Source: Escherichia coli (lineage in GTDB: Bacteria > Pseudomonadota > Gammaproteobacteria > Enterobacterales > Enterobacteriaceae). Taken from it: a stretch of 64,000 nt of DNA. The stretch is taken from NCBI RefSeq assembly GCF_003334255.1, contig NZ_QOWU01000015.1; one strand, 5' to 3'. The translations under genes and the position numbers were made by a program. Of this stretch, positions 9,355 through 64,000 are shown one piece after another. The notes under the pieces were generated by a model. It did not search any database. It was given only the letters and a program-made list of their open reading frames with translations, and had not been told where the DNA came from. Within the stretch, counting starts at the first letter, position 1, and every line of letters begins with the position of its first letter.

Positions 9355-10638
9355 ATGACAGAAGCGATGAAGATTACCCTCTCTACCCAACCTGCCGACG
9401 CGCGCTGGGGAGAAAAAGCAACTTACAGCATTAATAATGACGGCATTACCCTGCATTTGAACGGGGCAGACGATCTGGGGCTGATCCAGCGTGCGGCGCG
9501 CAAGATTGACGGTCTGGGCATCAAGCATGTTCAGTTAAGCGGTGAAGGCTGGGATGCGGATCGCTGCTGGGCATTCTGGCAAGGTTACAAAGCCCCGAAA
9601 GGCACGCGTAAAGTGGTGTGGCCGGATCTGGACGATGCCCAGCGCCAGGAACTGGATAACCGCCTGATGATCATCGACTGGGTGCGTGACACCATCAACG
9701 CACCGGCAGAAGAATTGGGACCATCGCAACTGGCACAGCGTGCTGTTGATCTGATCAGCAACGTCGCGGGCGATCGTGTGACTTATCGGATCACCAAAGG
9801 CGAAGATCTGCGTGAGCAAGGTTATATGGGGCTGCACACAGTCGGACGCGGTTCAGAACGTTCTCCGGTATTGCTGGCGCTGGATTACAACCCAACTGGC
9901 GATAAAGAAGCGCCAGTGTACGCGTGCCTGGTAGGTAAAGGTATCACTTTTGACTCCGGCGGCTACAGCATCAAACAGACTGCGTTTATGGACTCGATGA
10001 AGTCGGACATGGGCGGCGCGGCAACGGTTACCGGGGCGCTGGCATTTGCCATTACGCGCGGACTGAACAAGCGCGTGAAGCTGTTCCTCTGCTGTGCGGA
10101 TAACCTGATTAGCGGCAATGCGTTCAAGCTGGGCGATATCATCACCTATCGCAACGGTAAAAAAGTTGAAGTGATGAACACTGATGCCGAAGGGCGTCTG
10201 GTGCTTGCCGATGGTCTGATTGATGCCAGTGCGCAGAAACCGGAAATGATCATTGATGCGGCGACCCTCACCGGGGCGGCGAAAACTGCGCTGGGTAATG
10301 ATTATCACGCGCTGTTCAGTTTTGACGATGCGCTGGCCGGTCGCTTGCTGGCGAGTGCCGCGCAGGAGAACGAACCGTTCTGGCGTCTGCCGCTGGCGGA
10401 GTTCCACCGCAGCCAGCTGCCGTCTAACTTTGCCGAACTGAACAATACCGGAAGCGCGGCGTATCCGGCAGGCGCGAGCACGGCGGCGGGCTTCCTGTCG
10501 CACTTTGTTGAGAACTATCAGCAAGGCTGGCTGCATATCGACTGCTCGGCGACTTACCGTAAAGCGCCGGTTGAACAGTGGTCTGCGGGCGCTACGGGAC
10601 TTGGTGTGCGCACGATAGCTAATCTGTTAACGGCGTAA
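9355..10638 (+). CDS. pepB: PepB aminopeptidase B (M17 family)
   Basis: 427 aa from ATG 9355 ([10 protein letters not shown]); M17 signature NTDAEGRL. Confidence 0.95.
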
Positions 10639-10646
10639 ACTAATAT

Positions 10647-10744
<98 letters not shown>

Positions 10745-10779
10745 TTTGCGCCCCGAACGTTGAATGAATTGTGGTTCTT

Positions 10780-11556
10780 ATGTCCGAAACAAAAAACGAA
10801 CTTGAAGACCTGCTGGAAAAAGCAGCAACTGAACCGGCGCACCGCCCGGCCTTTTTCCGTACTCTACTGGAATCCACCGTCTGGGTGCCTGGTACGGCGG
10901 CGCAGGGCGAGGCTGTGGTTGAAGATAGCGCGCTTGATTTACAGCACTGGGAAAAAGAAGACGGCACCAGCGTCATTCCTTTTTTCACCTCGTTAGAAGC
11001 ACTTCAACAGGCGGTTGAAGACGAACAGGCATTTGTCGTAATGCCCGTTCGCACGCTGTTTGAGATGACACTTGGCGAAACGCTCTTCCTTAATGCCAAA
11101 CTGCCAACCGGTAAAGAATTTATGTCGCGTGAAATCAGTTTGTTGATTGGTGAAGAGGGAAATCCGCTGAGCAGCCAGGAAATCCTGGAAGGCGGTGAAT
11201 CGCTGATATTATCGGAAGTCGCAGAGCCGCCAGCACAAATGATTGATTCACTCACCACCTTATTTAAAACCATTAAGCCGGTGAAGCGTGCTTTTATTTG
11301 TTCAATTAAAGAGAACGAAGAGGCACAGCCTAATTTACTTATTGGCATTGAAGCCGATGGTGATATCGAAGAAATTATTCAGGCGACGGGAAGTGTAGCG
11401 ACCGATACATTACCTGGCGATGAACCAATCGATATTTGTCAGGTGAAAAAAGGGGAAAAAGGAATTAGCCACTTTATTACCGAACATATTGCGCCATTCT
11501 ATGAACGTCGCTGGGGTGGTTTTTTGCGTGACTTTAAACAGAATCGGATAATCTAA
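10780..11556 (+). CDS. sseB: SseB (enhanced serine sensitivity protein)
   Basis: 258 aa from ATG 10780 (MSETKNELEDLL). Confidence 0.9.
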   Translation: MSETKNELEDLLEKAATEPAHRPAFFRTLLESTVWVPGTAAQGEAVVEDSALDLQHWEKEDGTSVIPFFTSLEALQQAVEDEQAFVVMPVRTLFEMTLGETLFLNAKLPTGKEFMSREISLLIGEEGNPLSSQEILEGGESLILSEVAEPPAQMIDSLTTLFKTIKPVKRAFICSIKENEEAQPNLLIGIEADGDIEEIIQATGSVATDTLPGDEPIDICQVKKGEKGISHFITEHIAPFYERRWGGFLRDFKQNRII

Positions 11557-11559
11557 AAT

Positions 11560-11580
11560 ATGCCGCCCAAAGGGCGGCAT
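11560..11580. terminator. Stem-loop after sseB; also the candidate 3' end of the minus-strand ryfA-like transcript
   Basis: atgccgccc-aaa-gggcggcat is a perfect 9-bp stem. On the minus strand it is followed by atatttta; the U-tract is weak. Confidence 0.5.
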
Positions 11581-11736
11581 TCGGGCTTACTTGCTGCTCT
11601 GAAGGTTGTTAACCACCAGTAAATTGTCGCCGGAGAGACTCCGGTTATTATTTACCTCGGTTAACAGCGCACCAGAAACAATAAGTACGATACAAAAGCA
11701 CCGTATCTTCATTGTGCGGTCCATGCGAAGACCGCA

Positions 11737-11811
11737 TCACGACAGCACCACTGGCGATATTGCCGCGATAGCAAGCGCTGTGAAACACCTGCATTTACGG
11801 CCACGGAACAT
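11737..11811 (-). CDS. Candidate 24-aa small hydrophobic protein (MFRGRKCRCFTALAIAAISPVVLS), TimP/type-I-toxin-like
   Basis: ATG at 11809-11811 with SD aggaaagg 2 nt upstream; basic N-terminus followed by a 14-residue hydrophobic stretch; an upstream anti-SD (ccctttcc) can pair with the SD. Below the 60-aa cutoff of the ORF track. Confidence 0.3.
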   Translation of the reverse strand: MFRGRKCRCFTALAIAAISPVVLS

Positions 11812-12373: not shown

Positions 12374-13219
12374 TTATTTCACTGGCTCAACCGGTAAATC
12401 TGCCCGCGCGCCCCATTCACTCCATGCGCCGTCGTACAGTTTCACGTTTGGCACATCCAGCGTCGCGAGTGCTAACAAAACCACGGCTGCCGTTACACCA
12501 GAGCCGCAGCTGACGATAATTGGTTTGTCGTAGCTGACGCCGCGACCAAAAAATATCGCATCCAGTTCATCGGTCGTTTTTAGTTCGCCTTCGCGCACCA
12601 GTTCCGTCCACGGAACATTCAGTGCTCCGGGAATATGTCCGCGACGTAAACCTGGGCGAGGTTCATCAACTTCTGCGTTAAAACGTGCAGCCGGGCGGGC
12701 ATCAATAATTTGCGCCGTATTTTCATGGCTTGCCAATAATACATCGGTTACTTTCACCACGGCTTCAGGATTAAACGCGGCGTTAAACTCTCCTTCCGGC
12801 AGCTCTACTGCACCTTCTTCTAACAGCAGATCATCGCGCTGCCAGCCTGCAAGTCCACCCCCCAGAATCGACACTTTCTCTACACCAAAGGTGCGCAGCA
12901 TCCACCATGCTCGTGGGGCTGAGAAAAGATTACCTTCGTCATAGACAATCAGGTGCTTATCCTGGTTAACGCCTAATTCACGCATCGCCACGGCGAACGT
13001 TTCCGGGCGCGGCAGCATGTGCGGAAGCGGGGAAGTGTGATCAGAAAGCGCTTCGATATCAAAAAACACTGCGCCGGGAATATGTCCATTCAGATACTCC
13101 TGAGCAACGTTACGATCCTCCTGTCCAGGCGACGCCATGCGGGCATCGATAATCTGAATTTCCGGGTCATCAATATGTTCGGCGAGCCAGTCGGCTCCTA
13201 CAAACCATGTCGTGGACAT
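12374..13219 (-). CDS. sseA: SseA 3-mercaptopyruvate sulfurtransferase
   Basis: 281 aa from ATG 13217-13219 (MSTTWFVGADW); rhodanese active-site CGSGVTA. The track ORF extends 53 codons upstream of the real start. Confidence 0.93.
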   Translation of the reverse strand: MSTTWFVGADWLAEHIDDPEIQIIDARMASPGQEDRNVAQEYLNGHIPGAVFFDIEALSDHTSPLPHMLPRPETFAVAMRELGVNQDKHLIVYDEGNLFSAPRAWWMLRTFGVEKVSILGGGLAGWQRDDLLLEEGAVELPEGEFNAAFNPEAVVKVTDVLLASHENTAQIIDARPAARFNAEVDEPRPGLRRGHIPGALNVPWTELVREGELKTTDELDAIFFGRGVSYDKPIIVSCGSGVTAAVVLLALATLDVPNVKLYDGAWSEWGARADLPVEPVK

Positions 13220-13425
13220 AGGCATCTCCATTTTTGCCGGGGTTAGGCTAAATTGTCGGATGTTTAGTGAAAAGCGACAAGCAAAAGAGGCTGATTTGGC
13301 TGTCTGAGCCACAATTCTCACTAAAATTCGGATTGTATGGGCGTGATACTGAATTACATAACGTAAATTCTCACGCATAATAATTATTCGACGTTGCTAA
13401 CGGGCCATTGTGGCAGGGATGAAAA

Positions 13426-16400
13426 ATGAAAAAGTTACGCGTAGCCGCCTGCATGCTAATGCTGGCGCTGGCAGGGTGCGACAACAACGATAACGCGCCA
13501 ACAGCGGTGAAAAAAGATGCGCCTTCTGAAGTTACTAAAGCGGCCTCTTCAGAAAACGCGAGTTCAGCAAAACTCTCCGTGCCGGAGAGACAAAAACTGG
13601 CCCAACAGAGTGCCGGTAAGGTGCTGACATTGCTGGATCTCTCTGAAGTCCAACTTGATGGTGCAGCCACGCTGGTGCTGACGTTCTCCATCCCTCTCGA
13701 CCCGGATCAGGATTTCTCACGCGTTATTCATGTCGTCGATAAAAAAAGCGGCAAAGTGGATGGTGCCTGGGAGCTGTCAGATAATCTTAAAGAGTTACGT
13801 TTACGCCACCTCGAACCGAAACGTGATTTGATCGTTACTATTGGCAAGGAGGTCAAAGCACTCAACAACGCAACCTTCAGTAAAGATTACGAAAAAACTA
13901 TAACTACCCGCGACATCCAACCCAGCGTCGGTTTTGCCAGCCGTGGTTCGCTGCTGCCTGGCAAAGTCGTTGAAGGGCTGCCGGTAATGGCGCTCAACGT
14001 TAATAATGTCGATGTTAACTTCTTCCGCGTTAAGCCAGAATCTCTGCCAGCATTCATTAGCCAATGGGAATACCGCAATTCGCTGGCGAACTGGCAGTCA
14101 GACAAACTGCTGCAGATGGCGGATCTGGTCTACACCGGACGGTTTGATCTCAATCCTGCGCGTAACACCCGTGAAAAATTATTGCTGCCGCTGGGCGATA
14201 TCAAACCGCTTCAGCAGGCGGGCGTGTATCTGGCTGTGATGAATCAGGCTGGACGTTACGATTACAGTAATCCCGCGACGCTGTTTACGTTAAGTGATAT
14301 CGGCGTTTCAGCTCACCGTTATCACAATCGTCTGGATATCTTTACCCAAAGTCTGGAAAACGGCGCGGCCCAGCAAGGAATTGAAGTCTCTTTATTAAAT
14401 GAGAAAGGGCAGACTCTGACTCAGGCAACCAGTGACGCTCAGGGGCATGTGCAGCTGGAAAATGATAAAAACGCGGCATTACTGTTGGCGCGTAAAGACG
14501 GTCAGACAACGCTACTCGATTTAAAACTTCCGGCGCTGGACTTAGCAGAATTTAACATTGCTGGCGCGCCAGGCTATAGCAAACAGTTTTTCATGTTTGG
14601 CCCACGCGATCTTTATCGCCCAGGTGAAACGGTAATCCTCAATGGTTTGCTGCGTGATGCAGACGGTAAAGCGTTGCCCAATCAACCCATCAAGTTAGAC
14701 GTGATTAAACCCGATGGGCAGGTACTCAGGAGCGTCGTTAGTCAGCCGGAGAATGGCCTCTACCACTTTACCTGGCCACTCGATAGCAATGCGGCAACCG
14801 GTATGTGGCATATTCGCGCTAACACGGGCGATAATCAGTATCGGATGTGGGATTTCCACGTCGAAGATTTTATGCCAGAGCGCATGGCGCTGAATCTGAC
14901 CGGTGAGAAAACCCCGCTAACGCCGAAAGATGAAGTGAAATTCTCCGTGGTGGGGTACTACCTGTATGGTGCACCTGCTAATGGTAATACTTTGCAAGGG
15001 CAACTTTTCCTGCGCCCACTGCGTGAAGCTGTGTCAGCCTTACCTGGTTTTGAATTCGGCGATATAGCTGCCGAAAATCTTTCCCGCACGCTGGATGAAG
15101 TTCAGTTGACGCTGGATGATAAAGGGCGCGGCGAAGTTTCTACAGAAAGCCAGTGGAAGGAAACGCATTCCCCATTACAGGTTATTTTCCAGGGTAGTTT
15201 GCTGGAATCGGGCGGTCGCCCGGTGACGCGCCGCGCTGAGCAGGCTATCTGGCCTGCCGATGCATTGCCGGGGATCCGTCCGCAGTTCGCCTCGAAATCG
15301 GTTTACGATTATCGTACTGACAGCACGGTGAAACAGCCCATTGTTGATGAAGGCAGTAACGCCGCTTTTGACATCGTTTATAGCGATGCGCAAGGCGTGA
15401 AAAAAGCCGTGTCGGGCTTGCAGGTGCGCCTGATTCGCGAACGCCGCGATTACTACTGGAACTGGTCAGAAGATGAAGGCTGGCAGTCACAGTTTGATCA
15501 AAAAGATCTGATCGAAAATGAACAAACTCTGGATCTGAAAGCGGACGAAACCGGCAAGGTCAGTTTTCCGGTAGAGTGGGGCGCTTATCGTCTGGAAGTC
15601 AAAGCGCCGAATGAAGCGGTCAGTAGTGTTCGTTTCTGGGCTGGCTATAGCTGGCAGGACAACAGCGACGGTAGCGGCGCAGTGCGACCCGACCGTGTCA
15701 CGCTGAAACTGGATAAAGCCAGTTATCGCCCTGGCGACACCATTAAGTTGCATATCGCCGCGCCAACGGCGGGTAAAGGTTATGCGATGGTCGAGTCCAG
15801 TGAAGGGCCGCTGTGGTGGCAAGAGATTGATGTTCGGGCTCAAGGGCTGGATCTGACGATTCCGGTCGATAAAACCTGGAATCGTCATGATCTGTATTTA
15901 AGTACGCTGGTGGTACGTCCTGGCGATAAATCTCGCTCCGCGACGCCAAAACGCGCGGTTGGTGTGTTGCATCTGCCGCTTGGCGATGAAAACCGTCGCC
16001 TCGATCTGGCGCTGGAAACACCAGCAAAAATGCGTCCCAATCAACCATTAACCGTGAAAATTAAAGCCAGCACTAAAAATGGCGAGAAGCCTAAACAGGT
16101 GAATGTGCTGGTGTCTGCCGTTGATAGTGGTGTGCTGAATATTACTGACTACGTCACGCCAGATCCGTGGCAGGCGTTCTTTGGTCAGAAACGCTATGGC
16201 GCAGACATTTACGATATTTACGGTCAGGTTATTGAAGGTCAGGGGCGTCTGGCAGCTCTGCGTTTCGGTGGCGATGGTGATGAGCTGAAACGTGGTGGTA
16301 AACCGCCGGTCAATCACGTCAATATTGTCGTGCAGCAGGCGCTGCCGGTAACGCTCAACGAACAGGGCGAAGGCTCGGTTACACTGCCGATTGGCGATTT

Positions 16401-50929: not shown

Positions 50930-51779
50930 TCAGGATTCCTGACGTAAATAAATAGCCCGATAACAAATACTCACCAGCACTGCACCGCCGATAATATTAC
51001 CCAGCATCACCGGGAGCAGATTGGCGGTAATAAAATGGCTGACCGTCAGAGCCGGAAAATTGTCTGCGCTACTGTGCGCCAGTTGCCAGAAGGGGGGGAG
51101 GGGCGAAATGGCGAATGGCAATGGCGAACGGAATCACAAACAAATTGGCGATACAGTGCTCAAAGCCACTGGCGACAAACAGGGTGATGGGCAAAATCAT
51201 GGCGACGATTTTGTCGCATAACGAACGCCCGCAATAACTCATCCACAGCGCCAGGCAAACCATCAGATTGCACATAATGCCGAGGCTGACAGATTCAGTA
51301 AATGTATGATGCATTTTGCCCTCGGCGCAGTGTAAAACCGCGACTCCCCACATCGCGTTTTCACTCATCACCAGCCCGGAAAACCAGATTAACAAACTGA
51401 AACAGGCAATACCTGCCAGATTACCGCAGGCCACCAGAAGTGCGTTAATCAGCCAAGTTCGCCAACTAATAACGCCCCGACTTTTTGCCATCACCGTCAT
51501 TACCGACGAGGTGAACAGGCTGGTGCCGCAAACCGCCAGCAAAATAAAGCCGAGTGTAAAGCAAAGGCCGCCCACCAGATGGGTTAATGCCTGTGAAGAC
51601 GGGGCATCGGCGATAACGGAAAGGTAAAAAGTAAATCCAATCGTCATAAACACGCCAGCGGACATCGCCATTAAAAAGACCGATACTTTGCTGCGGGCAA
51701 TTTTATGGGCAGCAATCCGTTCAGCGATTGCCGCTTTTCTGGCGCTCAACTGCAAGTCGAAAGAGAGTTTGTTTCTCAT
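50930..51779 (-). pseudogene. focB: focB (formate channel FocB) interrupted by a +1 frameshift
   Basis: Two overlapping minus-strand ORFs (51069-51779 and 50930-51121) together cover an FNT-family protein. They are joined by removing one G from the G7 run at 51092-51098. The span is 850 nt, where 849 would give an intact 282-aa protein. Confidence 0.75.
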
Positions 51780-53842: not shown

Positions 53843-54256
53843 TCACGCAATTTTTCTGGCCATCAGATAGATAGCCGGTTCCAGCACAATTTCATCCAAC
53901 AGATGAATGAATTGAATGCTACGCGCTTGCCACACAGACGTCGCGTCATCTGCCAGTGGCGCGAATGCCCGGGTCAACAGGGCGGTGTGGCTGGCGTCAA
54001 TAACAATCTCACCAAAAGTCATCACCCCCAGCATCTTACGTCGGGCTTGCTCCTCTTCGACCAGTGCAAGCCAATCTTCGTATTCCGTCAGTGGGCAGCG
54101 GAAGGCGACATTCAGACAATCAATCACGCCAACGTGATGACCGATAGCCAGCGAGTAATACATTACCTGAGAGCTGTGTTCCGGCATCTCGTCGCTACTG
54201 GCGACAAACTTTTTTCGCAGCGTCCAGAAAACAATTTCCCCGCACTCTTCAGTCAT
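53843..54256 (-). CDS. hyfJ: HyfJ (HycH-like hydrogenase maturation factor)
   Basis: 137 aa from ATG 54254-54256 ([11 protein letters not shown]). Confidence 0.85.
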
Positions 54257-55006
54257 GTAACCCCCTGAGTACGCGAAAGAGTTGCTGAACGATACTATTG
54301 AGACGTGGATCGTCGGCATCGCGCAACCAGGTGTTAACCCGATTTCCTGTAGGATCGTCGCTTAAATGGCGCAGGAGCCGATCGCAAATTTCTCGCCCCT
54401 GACGATAGCCCGCCAGCCGCCGCGCTTCTCGCTCAATGGCGATACGCTGTGATGGCGGGATCTGTGGCCACAACGGTTGCATAGTCACCCCGGTGGGATC
54501 GCGATAATCCACAGCGTGAATCTTCTGTTGCAGCAAACCGAGCGCCACGGCGAAACCGTGAATGGTGGCGGCCGGTGTTGGCGGGCAGCCGGGGATCCAA
54601 ACATCAATGGGGACAATGGTGTCGCTGCCGCCCCAGACGCTGTAGAGATCGTGGAAAATACCGCCGCCGACACCGCACGCGCCGTAGGAAACACAGATTT
54701 ATGATCGGGGGCAGACTCATACGCCCGAAGTGCAGGCATACGCATCGCCCGGGTGACTGCGCCAGTAAATAACAAAATATCGGCGTGACGCGGTGATGAA
54801 ACAACCTTAATGCCAAAACGTTCTGCGTCGAATACGGGGGTGATGGCAGCAAAAATTTCGATTTCACAGGCGTTGCAGCCACCGCAATCGACGCGATAAA
54901 CGTAGGCTGAGCGACGGATATCCTGTAGCAAATGCCGCTTCATATTTTGCGTTTGCTCGTCCAGCGTGATGGGCTGGCTGACATATTGCGTAAGCACTGG
55001 ACTCAT
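54249..55006 (-). pseudogene. hyfI: hyfI (NuoB-like hydrogenase-4 small subunit) interrupted by a -1 frameshift
   Basis: N-terminal ORF 54485-55006 (with [10 protein letters not shown]) leaves the conserved frame after ...YESAPDHK. The conserved continuation ([13 protein letters not shown]...IPGCPP...) is in the other frame and runs to the stop at 54249. A T3 run at 54698-54700 is one base short. The span is 758 nt, where 759 would give 252 aa. Confidence 0.75.
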
Positions 55007-55542
55007 AGCTGCTCCTTAGCCACCAGCGGTACATCTGTATCGTCGTTGAGCAGCGTCGCGCGTTGTTTGCACTCCGGGCAGACGCTCGCTTGCGCCCATA
55101 ACATTTCGCGGTTTTGTGGCGCATTTTGTTGCTGTGCCAACAATTCAGCAGCCAGTGCGACGGTTTTTTGCGGGGCAAACGGGCGTTCGCAACGGCTGCA
55201 ACGTTGTAGATGGAACGTCGCGCGGGTATAGAGATCGGCTTTATTGGTGACGGTCAGTTCAAAGTTATTGGTAAGCTGGATGGCTCTGGTCGGGCACACT
55301 TCTTCACAACGTCCGCAGTAAATACAACGCCCCAGATAGAGCTGCCAGGTGCGCGAATTTTGCTGGTCGTCGGTCTGGATAGTCAGCGCATTTGCCGGAC
55401 AAGCACAGGCGCCGCAGGCAATACATTGGCTGGGCATCAGGTCCGGTTTCCCGCGAAAGCCTGGGCTGACCTCCAGTGGCGCGAAGGGATATTTCACCGT
55501 CGCGGTTCCGGCGCGCATAATAGTTTTCAGTAACTTCAGCAT
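55003..55542 (-). CDS. hyfH: HyfH, 2x[4Fe-4S] ferredoxin-type subunit
   Basis: 179-aa ORF with [10 protein letters not shown] and [12 protein letters not shown] motifs. Confidence 0.93.
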
Positions 55543-55551
55543 CTTCTGTCC

Positions 55552-57219
55552 TTACTTCAGCGGCGAACGGTTACGATCAATGCCGTAGCGTTCGATCTCT
55601 TTATACGGCACGGTTTTTGACTGGCGCTTGCGCACATCTACCAGCGTCACACGGTCGGTACAGGAGTAGCAGGGATCAAGGCTACCGATAATCAGCGGTG
55701 CGTCAGAAACGGTATTGCCGCGCAGCATGTAACGCAACACCGGCCAGTTGGCGTAGGTGGCGGCACGGCAGCGCCAGCGGAACAATTTTTGGTTATCACC
55801 GAGCATGCTCCAGTGCACGTCTTCACCGCGTGGCGCTTCAACAAAGCCCAGCGCGAATGCGTGAGGTTTATAGCTAAAGCCTTCGGTCAGCAGTGGGGTA
55901 TCCGGCATGTTGTCGAGGGCAAATTCCAGCATTGCCAGCGAATCAAACGTCTCTTTGACACGGACCATCACGCGGGAGAAAACATCGCCGCCGGTAAAGG
56001 TAAACAGTGTTTTTGGAATATTGCCGTAGTCGGCGTAGGGGTGATCAAAGCGCAAATCACGGGCGATTTGTCGGTCGAGAATGCCAATGCCCTGAGTGCG
56101 TTGTTCCATATTCGGCGTAGCAAGCAGCATCTCTACCAGCTCCGACACGTCGGCGCGCATCTCGCGCACCAGTTTCAGCGTTTGCAGACGTTGCTCTTTG
56201 AGAATATCGCGGCGAACACCACCAATCAGATTCAGACCGTAGGTTTTACGCGACCCGATCAGCAATTCCGCCATCGTCATCGACTTTTCCCGCACGCGGA
56301 AAAATTGCATAAAGCCGGTATCAAAACCAACGAAATGGCAGGAGAGGCCAAGGTTAAGCAAATGACTGTGTAGCCGTTCGACTTCCAGCAGAATCGAGCG
56401 AATAGTATGTGCTCGTTGCGGCACCTCAATCCCCAGTGCATTTTCAACCGAATTGGTATAGGCCACACTGTGGGCAAAACCGCAAATCCCACACACGCGG
56501 TCCGATAAGAAGGTCACTTCGTTGTAGCCCATCCGCGTTTCTGCCAGTTTCTCCATGCCGCGATGGACATAAAACAGGCGGTAATCAGCATCGACAATTT
56601 GCTCGCCATCCACAAACAAGCGGAAGTGACCCGGTTCATCGGAGGTGATATGCAGCGGGCCGACAGGGATCACCCGCGCATCGCTGTTGCCCTCATTGAT
56701 AAACGGATACGTTTCGGAATCAGTCGTCGGTTCAGGGCGCAGTCGATAATCCATCGCATCTTTGCGCAGCGGATGCATATCTTCCGGCCAGTCATCGGGC
56801 AACACCAGGCGACGCTGATCCGGCAGGCCAACCGGAATCAGCCCGTACATATCGCGAATTTCTCGCTCGCCCCAGACCGCGGCAGGGACGCGCGGTGTGA
56901 CTGACGGAAACTCCCGACTGTCGGCATCGACCAGCGCCTTCACCACAATCCAGCATTTTTCGGCCCCTTCCATTGAAAGGGCATAATAAACCGCGTAATG
57001 ACCGTTAAGTGTCCGCTCGTCGTTGCCAAACAGGACCGGAAGCCAGCCATCATGTTGATAATAAAGATACTGTACAACGTCAGGCAGCAGATTGATTTTC
57101 ACCGTAATGGTGACCTGTTCAGGCGTTTGTCGCTCTTCATCCAGCACCGCGCCGGGGAACTGCGTTTTCAGGGCGGCGAGAATCGCTTCGCCACGATTTG
57201 ACGATGAATTAACGTTCAC
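55552..57219 (-). CDS. hyfG: HyfG, hydrogenase-4 [NiFe] large subunit
   Basis: 555 aa from GTG 57217-57219; N-terminal [10 protein letters not shown] and C-terminal DPCYSCTDR nickel-binding motifs. Confidence 0.95.
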
Positions 57220-58789
57220 TGTGTTTCTCCGAAACAGATGCGGTGCCTGAAGGCAAAAAATCATGCCAGGTGCTACGTTGTGCAGGCAGATCGTGCGTCC
57301 CTGAGAGGACTATAGTGGAAGCGCCCGCCAGGATCCTGATGACAGGTTGTGGAATATGCGTTCCCATCGCCAGCATCATGACCAGCAGAATCACCATTGG
57401 CGAGGTGGTCAACCAGCCGAGATCACCCCGGTTAACGGCCTGCGGCGGTTTCGCCATTAACACCCGCGCAGCCATCCGTACCAGGCCCGCCAGCACCAGC
57501 GTTAACAGCAATAACAGCAGGACGATAATCAGCAGGTGATTACGTGCCAGTCCGGCGGTAATGGTCATAAATTCGCTAAGAAAAATGTTGAAGGGCGGCA
57601 TCCCTGCCAGCGCCAGCGCACCGCCGCCAAACAGCACGGCGGTAAATGGCATGATTTTGAGCATCCCACAGACGACGTTGAGATCGCGCGTGCCGTACTT
57701 GAGCAGTACATTGCCGGAACCGCAGAACAGCAGCGTTTTTGCCAGACTGTGGTTTAAGATGTGCAGCAGCGCGGCAAAAATTCCCAGCGGCCCGCCAATG
57801 CCTAGCGCCACCGCGACCAGTCCCATGTTCTCCACGCTGGAGTACGCCAGCAGACGCTTAATGTCCCGCTGTACCAGAATGAAAAATGCCGCCACGGCAA
57901 CCGACAACATGCCGAAGATGAGCAACAACCGGTTGGGGAAATCGCTGCCGATGGCCTGGCAAATAATGATGTAATAGCGAATCAGCACCAACAGCGCGCA
58001 GTTCAGCAATACGGCGGAGAGTAGGGCGCTGACCGGACTCGGCGCTTCACTGTGAGCATCCGGCAGCCAGGCGTGCATGGGAAATAGCCCGGTTTTGGTA
58101 CCAAAGCCAATTAGCACAAACACAAAGGCCAACAGCATTAATGTTGGATCAAGCAAGGACGATTGCTTAAGAACCTCGCTCCAGAATATCGCCATTTCTG
58201 CCTGCGGCATAACGCTGGCGGCGTTGGCGTATACCAGCACGGTACCGAACAGACCAAAAGCGACACCAACAGTACAAATAATGATGTACTTCCATGCAGC
58301 TTCCAGCGATGAACGCTGACCGTAAATGCCTACCAGAAACGCCGAGCTTAAGGTGGTGGCTTCGATCGCCGCCCACATCACAATCAGGTTATTGCTGGTA
58401 ACAACCAGCAGCATGGTGAACAAAAACAGATGGAAGAAACCGTAGTAATCGCACAGCGTAACGGGTGAAAGCTCGCCGTGCTCCACTTCATGACGCATGT
58501 AGCCAATCGAGTAAACACCGGTGAGAAAGCCAATCACACCAAGAATGGCGAGGAACAAACCGCCCAGACCATCAATATGAAGCCACAGTCCCGCAGCGAA
58601 TATTTCTCCTGCATCAGCGGCAGTTTGGACCACCCAGAGTGCCAGAATCAGCAGCAGTGTGATCCCTAAGCTATGTAATACGGTCACCGTACAAGTCGCA
58701 GAGAGCCTCCGTTTCCGGCAGGCAAAACAGAGCAGCGAAAAAAGCAGCGGCGTGAGCAGGAGTAAAGCGAACATCACAGAATAACTCAT
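57209..58789 (-). CDS. hyfF: HyfF, NuoN/L-like antiporter-type membrane subunit
   Basis: 526-aa multi-TM ORF. Confidence 0.93.
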
Positions 58790-61869: not shown

Positions 61870-63887
61870 TTAGACGGCAATAGCGATTAGCAGCACAACC
61901 AGTGCGGCGACCACATACAGGCAATAGAGACGAAAGTCGCCGCTTTGCAGATGCTGTATTTCTTTGGCCAGCCGTTGGGTGGCGCTCACGATGGGGCGGA
62001 TCACCCGCTCATCCCAGAAGGGTTCTGTGCTCTGAGCCCTGGCGGTGACGTGCGCAAGACCTTTATTTAGCCTCAGCGTAGGGTCGAGCTGTTGTCGTAG
62101 ACGAAATAGCGCAGAGAAGACCACACGCAGCGGCTGCATCACGCCATTGCCTGACGGGGCCATCGCATTTTCCCAGCCGTAGCCGCATGCCCAGGCATCT
62201 CCTGTGCGACGAAACGCTGCGCGGCGCGAACGACACCACAGCCAGTAAAGGCCAGGCAGCAAAGGCATCGCCAGTAGTAACAGCAACAGTAATGAGGAGG
62301 TTACCTGTGTATGAAACGTGCCGGGTACAAGAGCTATTCCGCTGGCGACAGTGACGGGAGGGGTATTGGTAAACGCATGGGCAATATGCATTATCTTCGG
62401 TGCCAGCCAACTGGCACTAAGCGCAATTAATACGCAGAGTGCCGCGAGCAGTAGCATGGCGACGATCATCGTATTTGGCACTTCCTGTGCCTCTTCAGCG
62501 TGTGTACTGCGCGGCGCACCACAGAAAGTAATACCGTACATTTTGACGAAGCACATTACTGCCAGCCCACCAGTGACTGCCAGCATTACCATAGCAATAG
62601 GACCCGCAAGTTGTAGCGCTACGGCTTCCACACGACTTAGTGAGAACAGCGACTGCCAGGTGTACCATTCGCTGATAAAACCATTCAGCGGAGGAATGGC
62701 TGATATCGCGAGGCAACCAATCAGGCATGCTGCGGCTGTCCACGGCATCCGTTTCGCCAGTGCCCCCATTTTTTCCATGTCGTGGGTATGCAAACGCGAA
62801 ATAATCGCGCCCGCGCCGAGAAATAGCAGCCCTTTGAACAGCGCATGGTTGAGCAGATGAAACAGTGCGCCGAGCAGTCCAACCACGGTGAGCAGCGGGT
62901 CGTGCAGTGACAGACCGTCCATCGCCACACCGACTGCCAGCAAAATAATGCCGACGTTTTCGACGGTACTCCAGGCCAGCAGCCGTTTGATATCCTGTTC
63001 CGCCAGCGCATATAGCACGCCCAGGAGCGCGGAGATTGCGCCGATCGCCATCACCAGAATGCCCCACCACAGAGGCAAACCCGTTTGCGCCAGCAGATCC
63101 ATCGCTACTTTCAGGATGCCGAAAATACCGATTTTGACCATTACGCCAGACATCAACGCCGAAGCGTGCGATGGTGCGGCAGGGTGAGCGCGCGGCAACC
63201 AGCTGTGCAACGGTATCATCCCGGCTTTCGCGCCAAAACCGAAAAAGGCCAGCAGAAACACCGCCGACGCCAGCCCCGGAGAAAGTGAAAGCGTGCGAAA
63301 CTGGCAAAATCGAGGCTGCCGCTTTCGCGCCCCATCAGCAAGAAGGCGATCATAATCAGCACCGATCCGGCGTGGGCGATAAAAAAGTAGAGCATGCCAG
63401 CGTTGATCGACGTTTTATCCTGCCTGGCAATGACCAGAAACCAGGAAGACAGCGACATCATTTCAAACAGCACGATGAACCAAAAAGCGTTGTCCATCAC
63501 CAGCAGGGCAACCATCGATGCGATGAAAAGATTCATAAAGAAGCCCATCGCCGCCGCGCCTTTGCCCTCGTATTCGCGCATATAAGTCAATGAATAGAGC
63601 GAACAAACCACCACCAGCAAGGAGATAACCAGCACCATAAATGCCGAGAGGCTATCCATTCGCAGGGTTAAATCGGCAAAGTCAAAAGGGGTGGCAAAAT
63701 GGGCGACTAAAGTTACACCAGCATGTAATTGCGTAATTCCGCTGATGATGCCAATCACGCCGCCCACCAGCGATGTGATGCCGGAAAGCTTAATAGCCAG
63801 TCTGTCCAGACCGAGTAAAAACAGCGAAGCCAGACTGGCAAACAGATAGAGGATCAGCGACCAGGTTAATAATTGCAGGGCATCCAT
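61870..63887 (-). pseudogene. hyfB: hyfB (NuoL-like hydrogenase-4 membrane subunit) interrupted by a -1 frameshift
   Basis: N-terminal ORF (ATG 63885-63887, MDALQLLTW...) and C-terminal ORF (stop at 61870) are in different frames and overlap near 63260-63300. Total span is 2018 nt, where 2019 would give 672 aa. The most likely site is gcgaaa at 63296-63300 (one base missing). Confidence 0.75.
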
Positions 63888-64000
63888 TAGCGTTGCTCCT
63901 GAGTGAGGGAAAGGGGATCCTCCCATAAGCGCTAACTTAAGGGTTGTGGTATTACGCCTGATATGATTTAACGTGCCGATGAATTACTCTCACGATAACT

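Follow-up and report, generated by a model that had tools for sequence, protein, structure and literature searches.

We consider it very likely that hyfI in this E. coli strain is a genuine and heritable loss-of-function pseudogene, that its single-base deletion had one origin and was afterwards carried between chromosomes by recombination of the surrounding block, and that the operon, which is dispensable and decaying, contains several lesions besides this one. This proposal is based on comparison of the window, by which we mean the whole 64,000-nt stretch of DNA that was analyzed, with complete E. coli genomes, with K-12 and with relatives of the hyfI gene product. The hyf operon, which encodes hydrogenase-4, lies on the minus strand of the window, from hyfB at 63887 to focB at 50930, and is collinear with hyfA-focB of K-12. 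The features in and next to hyfI are as follows.

54249-55006, minus strand: hyfI pseudogene, hydrogenase-4 small subunit of the HycG/NuoB family, 758 nt long compared with 759 nt when intact.
54698-54700, minus strand: frameshift site, an A3 run (coding sense) in place of the A4 of intact alleles, corresponding to nt 307, codon 103, of K-12 hyfI.
54488-54697, minus strand: out-of-frame stretch of 70 codons, translated as SVFPTARAV...IAIPPG.
54485-54487, minus strand: premature TGA that ends the shifted frame, the hyfJ ATG (54256) being 229 nt further downstream.
54249-54698, minus strand: native coding sequence for HyfI residues 104-252, now untranslatable, which holds C111 (GACGVGGG) and C141 (PGCPP).
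53843-54256, minus strand: hyfJ, intact, whose ATG normally overlaps the end of hyfI.

On the plus strand the sequence around the site is ...cacagaTTTatgatc..., with TTT at 54698-54700 (T3, versus T4 in intact alleles), and the hyfI reading on the minus strand is GAT CAT AAA TCT GTG TTT CCT, compared with CAT AAA ATY in other E. coli. Alignment with hyfI of K-12 MG1655 reveals a sole indel, the one A missing at nt 307 (A4 to A3), and no compensating second indel was found within hyfI in this comparison. The preliminary description of the window had assigned the gene to hyfI and had placed at this site the loss of one T from the plus strand, equivalent to one A in the coding sense, and both the assignment and the site are confirmed to the base by the K-12 comparison together with the alignment to HycG and MbhJ and the family profiles. 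The two reading frames it gave are likewise borne out by translation. From the ATG at 55006, frame 0 encodes 173 aa made up of 103 native residues and 70 aberrant residues beginning SVFPTARAV, and the native frame reopens precisely at 54698, encodes ...IPGCPP... and ends at the normal TGA at 54251-54249. With one A restored, the gene encodes a 252-aa HyfI that differs from the K-12 protein solely at H8Y and K21N; every one of the 149 residues after the site is that of K-12, and the nucleotide differences in this part are all synonymous. The recovery by a single A of a 252-aa protein with 149 K-12-identical residues is far beyond chance. The frame is broken relative to intact orthologues and runs into a premature stop, and the lesion is, as judged from assemblies, real and transmitted, with an identical haplotype block present in 19 complete genomes. 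In addition, the order hyfG-hyfH-hyfI-hyfJ is that of K-12, which places the gene in the large and ferredoxin-like subunit context of a group 4 hydrogenase. By descent, the gene is hyfI, and by state, it is a unitary frameshift pseudogene. Since the premature stop falls 229 nt before the hyfJ ATG, translational coupling of hyfJ to hyfI is probably lost as well.

That the correct frame opens precisely at 54698, and that the coding sequence 3' of the site is undamaged, might be taken to mean that full-length HyfI is restored by recoding, either by a programmed -1 ribosomal frameshift or by transcriptional slippage. We regard this as exceedingly improbable. None of the marks of a programmed frameshift, namely a slippery sequence, an RNA structure and conservation among orthologues, is seen at the site. 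There is no X XXY YYZ slippery heptamer within 150 nt, and a -1 slip would need tRNA-Lys to re-pair on UAA. The RNA around the site (116 nt, from 15 nt upstream to ~100 nt downstream) has a minimum free energy of -34.3 kcal/mol compared with a mean of -35.8 kcal/mol for shuffled sequences (z=+0.38), so that no stimulatory structure beyond that of the shuffles is present. Transcriptional slippage requires a run of ~8-9 A, and the A3 run is far under that length. Moreover, an intact frame is seen in almost all other hyfI alleles, and the shift is thus not a conserved feature. The undamaged sequence 3' of the frameshift fits a recent event, although it would be equally expected if the region were somehow still translated. 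We retain the pseudogene assignment, and consider next what is lost from the protein.

The identity of the repaired protein is well defined by its relatives. It matches HycG of the formate hydrogenlyase (FHL) complex (7z0s_G) over residues 9-247 with E=7e-99, which is the alignment against HycG/NuoB-family proteins that had been suggested as a check, and it also matches MbhJ (6cfw_J, E=1.6e-41) and the PSST/NuoB subunits of complex I (E ~1e-26). The Pfam domain Oxidored_q6 (PF01058) spans residues 44-152 (E=6e-24), and the repaired protein scores 121.4 bits against NCBIfam NF005012, which passes the cut-off of 116. In contrast, the 173-aa product that is actually encoded reaches only 50.1 bits, with the match confined to residues 27-107, and does not amount to the whole domain of a HycG/NuoB-type small subunit. 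Four cysteines are kept across HyfI, HycG and MbhJ: C44 and C47 (CGGCNAC), C111 (GACGVGGG) and C141 (PGCPP). Their assignment as ligands of the proximal [4Fe-4S] cluster in HyfI is by alignment to HycG and MbhJ, and of the four, C44 and C47 are kept in the encoded product while C111 and C141 are out of frame. The frameshift is the sole reason for the shortfall in both the profile score and the ligand set. The earlier view that the Fe-S-binding, C-terminal two-thirds of the subunit is removed therefore needs to be adjusted in two respects. The C-terminal loss is upheld, but it amounts to 149 of 252 residues (59%), which is short of two-thirds, and the loss of cluster ligands extends to C111 and C141 but not to C44 and C47, which lie upstream of the site.

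The FHL structure shows the proximal [4Fe-4S] cluster G1, which is equivalent to N2 of complex I, bound by HycG beside the [NiFe] site (PMC9474812). By analogy, we propose the following sequence of events for HyfI. Replication slippage in the A4 run at codon 103 would most likely have removed one A:T pair, and the resulting 173-aa product would keep C44/C47 but lack C111, C141 and the whole C-terminal extension. The proximal [4Fe-4S] cluster, the electron feeder of the [NiFe] site in HyfG, could then not be assembled, and, judging by homology to HycG and NuoB, hydrogenase-4 would be unable to work in this strain. One might argue that a truncated or two-piece protein still functions, with the N-terminal 103 residues acting by themselves or in combination with a C-terminal fragment that has its own start, given that the N-terminal part keeps both C44 and C47 and the stretch that aligns to the NDUFS7 loop (HycG residues 69-80). 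This is highly improbable. The first ATG, GTG or TTG in the C-terminal frame is a GTG at 54548, which is beyond both C111 and C141, and so the C-terminal part with its ligands cannot be made separately; the frameshifted product falls below the family cut-off, as described above; and, with hyfB broken and the operon interrupted by IS421 (see below), no complex could form in any case.

The distribution of the allele was determined in 5,426 complete E. coli genomes using a 61-mer centered on the site and an 851-nt query spanning hyfI. The exact 61-mer with the deletion is present in 19 of the 5,426 genomes. Matches at 95-99% identity are found in 3,845 other genomes, and all 41 of these matches that were listed span 62 nt, that is, they have A4 and are in frame. 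Among all 3,865 genomes that match the 61-mer, the frameshift is accordingly found in 19, the remainder being below 99% identity. The 851-nt query matches 18 complete genomes at 100% and one more over the same length, while the nearest intact alleles have one extra base and reach 99.1-99.2% identity. The carrier haplotype differs from every intact allele in the collection at ~6 further positions per 851 bp, from which it follows that its intact progenitor is not in the collection. The 19 carriers are isolates from human, cattle, pig, poultry, wastewater and seawater, were sequenced in unrelated projects, and have origins that include the USA, Germany, Japan, Cuba and Ecuador. In the eight carriers whose records were inspected, including G1/2, which is identical in sequence, RefSeq/PGAP labels hyfI as 'frameshifted' in all eight. 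Hence, the hyfI lesion is an ordinary pseudogene that is already annotated in the public records of identical genomes. A literature search for a frameshift in hyfI or hyfB gave nothing relevant, the sole E. coli match being an engineered operon deletion in strain DGF-298.

These data also bear on whether the missing base is a homopolymer error of sequencing or assembly, such that the true genome has T4 and hyfI is intact. Single-base indels in homopolymers are a frequent artefact of long-read assembly and the evidence here comes from assemblies, but such an error is very hard to credit when 19 complete assemblies, produced independently in many projects and on many platforms, show the same allele and place it every time on a single private haplotype, absent from intact alleles (nearest 99.1-99.2%). 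Furthermore, a run of 3-4 bases is too short to be error-prone, and the allele co-occurs with other independent lesions. The 19 assemblies on one private haplotype effectively exclude sequencing error, and, together with the 'frameshifted' label in RefSeq, they make it very unlikely that reads would show T4 at this site, the outcome named beforehand as one that would overturn the frameshift.

The history of the allele was reconstructed from a 13-kb operon alignment in which the window was set beside seven carriers, WP7-S17 being the one inspected carrier that was left out, and beside the non-carriers K-12 and F8704-2. The region shared by the carriers is the following.

54466-55412, minus strand: zero-difference haplotype block (~0.95 kb) in the window and all carriers aligned, extending to 53884 when LR-45 is left out.

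Outside this block, the operon flanks of the carriers fall into four haplotype groups with 84-139 SNPs per 13 kb between groups (~0.6-1%), and in the 7.4 kb downstream of the operon three carrier groups differ from one another by 43-76 SNPs, a distance equal to that between carriers and non-carriers. A short block that is identical by descent in varied backgrounds is the usual signature of homologous recombination in E. coli. A block with zero SNPs in all aligned carriers, set within diverged flanks, implies one mutational origin followed by recombination, and the alignment indicates that the hyfI deletion arose once and that homologous recombination then brought the block into three or more chromosomal backgrounds. 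A recurrent hot-spot mutation was considered and rejected, as the zero-SNP block is common to all carriers.

The hyfI deletion is accompanied in the window by several other lesions of the operon.

63925-64000 (76 nt visible, strand not assigned): end of an IS421 element (IS4-like) in the 3' end of hyfA, the rest of which is outside the window.
61870-63887, minus strand: hyfB pseudogene with one C missing at codon 197 (~63297), split into ORFs of 236 aa and 463 aa.
55003-55542, minus strand: hyfH, encoding 179 aa, from which 6 nt of a GCCTGC repeat are deleted near 55412.
50930-51779, minus strand: focB pseudogene, in which a C6 run at codon 228 (~51094-51100) has one C too many.

The IS421 element has entered hyfA within its last 26-37 nt, with 12 bp duplicated, and the hyfB start lies 26-37 nt downstream of it. 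The hyfB frameshift allele is found as an exact 61-mer in 1,257 of 4,293 hyf-bearing complete genomes, and hydrogenase-4 would appear to be genetically dead in ~29% of hyf-bearing strains by way of this single old lesion. The deletion in hyfH changes the first ferredoxin motif from CxxCxxCxxxCP to CxxCxxCxCP, leaving a gap relative to HycF (CIGCAACVNACP); the allele is exact in 769 of 4,292 genomes, and in RefSeq the 179-aa protein is annotated as normal. The extra C in focB is common to MB51 and JP538 and is absent from 2014C-3061 and LR-45. No carrier examined is free of further inactivating lesions in hyf-focB, and among the carriers hyfB is intact in MB51 only. Two hyfD frameshifts are found in the carriers 2014C-3061, 13E0780 and OkiPb01680, a hyfF frameshift in the carriers MB51 and LR-45, and the carrier WP7-S17 has lost hyfR and focB in association with IS1, at 12417-13663 of locus L005. 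The non-carrier 2014C-3011 has pseudogenes of hyfB, hyfD, hyfH and hyfR. The lesions of other E. coli strains also include an internal stop in hyfR. Judged from these genomes, decay of hyf is recurrent, widespread and mosaic across E. coli.

The hyfI lesion is a late and minor event in a dispensable and decaying operon. That hyfI was the founding lesion is not supported, as the hyfB frameshift is ~60x commoner and is also found together with intact hyfI (F8704-2 and 2014C-3011). The dispensability of the operon is indicated by the absence of hyfI DNA from 1,131 of the 5,426 genomes (851-nt query), by the listing of hyfABCDEFGHIJ as absent from phylogroup B2 (PMC2617782) and by the deletion of the hyf operon in the genome-reduced strain DGF-298 (PMC10652928).

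The window also contains an allele of hyfG that concerns the reference strain itself.

55552-57219, minus strand: hyfG, 555-aa K-12-type allele with a 48-nt deletion between GCCCGTGATT direct repeats, junction at 56055-56064.

The longer, 571-aa hyfG allele is carried by 2,026 of about 4,295 hyf-bearing complete genomes, as found with a query inside the 48-nt segment, which in the comparison locus L001 is at 10943-10990. The 16 residues missing from the 555-aa HyfG are YSPVGPLIRGSGFARD, and these align without gaps to FSNVGPMVRASGHARD of HycE. K-12 HyfG has a 16-residue gap relative to HycE and a matching gap relative to MbhL (GAVGPTARGSGIKE). On these alignments, the reference K-12 HyfG seems to be the product of a deletion allele, with a conserved VGPxxRxSG segment missing. 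In the window, the hyfG region at ~55900-57400 has zero differences from K-12 over ~1.5 kb, corresponding to 10313-11765 of the K-12 locus L010, and the neighboring segments differ by 1-2%. This K-12-identical segment is a recombination mosaic that contains the short hyfG allele. The inactivity of FHL-2 in E. coli has been described as a long-standing mystery by Lindenstrauss and Pinske. Hydrogenase-4 of K-12 has never been shown to be active, even when over-expressed (PMC7654741), and Finney et al. (2020) obtained no activity from the 15 K-12 strains that they equipped with new promoters and with fusions of HyfG to HycE (PMC7654741). The 16-aa deletion in HyfG is not mentioned in the text of that paper (Finney et al., 2020; PMC7654741). 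We suggest that the deletion might be behind the failure to activate E. coli hydrogenase-4 by engineering.

The spread of the hyfI block can also be read in terms of selection, whereby inactivation of hydrogenase-4 is favored in these gut lineages and accounts for the presence of the block in several backgrounds. The identical block is indeed found in three or more diverged backgrounds, and there are many independent hyf lesions across E. coli. We nevertheless consider adaptive loss unlikely. The hyfI allele is rare (19/5,426), and most carriers already have the hyfB frameshift, so that an additional hyfI lesion would add no phenotype. Mosaics of this size are what recombination ordinarily produces in E. 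coli, the K-12-identical hyfG segment being an example, and, with the K-12 enzyme inactive even on over-expression, there is perhaps nothing left to select against. In its fullest form, this interpretation would hold that the block spread by recombination because loss of hydrogenase-4 is favored in gut and commensal lineages, and that the hyf lesions represent ongoing selection against a costly and non-productive complex rather than neutral decay, and this we consider distinctly improbable. If it were true, the hyfB frameshift, present in 29% of hyf-bearing genomes, and the K-12-type 16-aa deletion in HyfG would be among the selected lesions.

Among the genomes that match the window are those of a known bacterial preparation. 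The 24-kb segment of the window from 40000 to 64000 matches G1/2, G6/7 and G8 at 100.0% over its full length, and four other genomes, B-1109, cM8a, JP538 and MB06232, match at 100.0% from query base 77 only, that is, without the last 76 nt; the IS421 insertion is found only in G1/2, G6/7 and G8 among these seven genomes. In the operon alignment, there is one difference between the window and G1/2. The probiotic Symbioflor 2 contains G1/2, G6/7 and G8 (PMC4358396), and we predict that the Symbioflor 2-like strain background which they represent would be unable to make hydrogenase-4. The hyfI finding in itself matters little, in that it is a routine inactivating indel that is already labelled in RefSeq. 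The HyfG deletion, on the other hand, could bear on the long failure to activate E. coli hydrogenase-4, and this is directly and cheaply testable.

How the window allele relates to known systems can be summarized at three levels. At the level of the gene, the closest comparison is K-12 HyfI (b2489, NP_416984.1), which is encoded at the same locus with the same hyfH-hyfI-hyfJ synteny and is, apart from H8Y and K21N, the same 252-aa protein once the window allele is repaired; as it stands, the window allele, short of an A at nt 307, specifies no more than 103 of the native residues. At the level of the operon, the other natural pseudogenes of hyf (hyfB, hyfD, hyfF, hyfH, hyfR and focB) are likewise due to single-base indels or IS insertions, are likewise labelled 'frameshifted' by PGAP, and are found in carriers and non-carriers of the hyfI deletion, whereas the hyfI allele is rarer (19 genomes, versus 1,257 for the hyfB allele) and is confined to one haplotype block. 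At the level of the protein family, HycG of hydrogenase-3 in formate hydrogenlyase (PDB 7Z0S/7Z0T, chain G) shares the CxxC, GACxxGG and PGCPP motifs with repaired HyfI. HycG is a paralogue from the hyc operon that is intact and experimentally active, while hyfI of the window ends before the last two of the ligands. NuoB, NDUFS7 and MbhJ contain the same domain (Oxidored_q6, PF01058) as residues 44-152 of the repaired protein. In complex I, which reduces quinone, the ligands include a tandem CC, whereas HyfI and HycG have CxxC and serve a [NiFe] site (PMC9474812).
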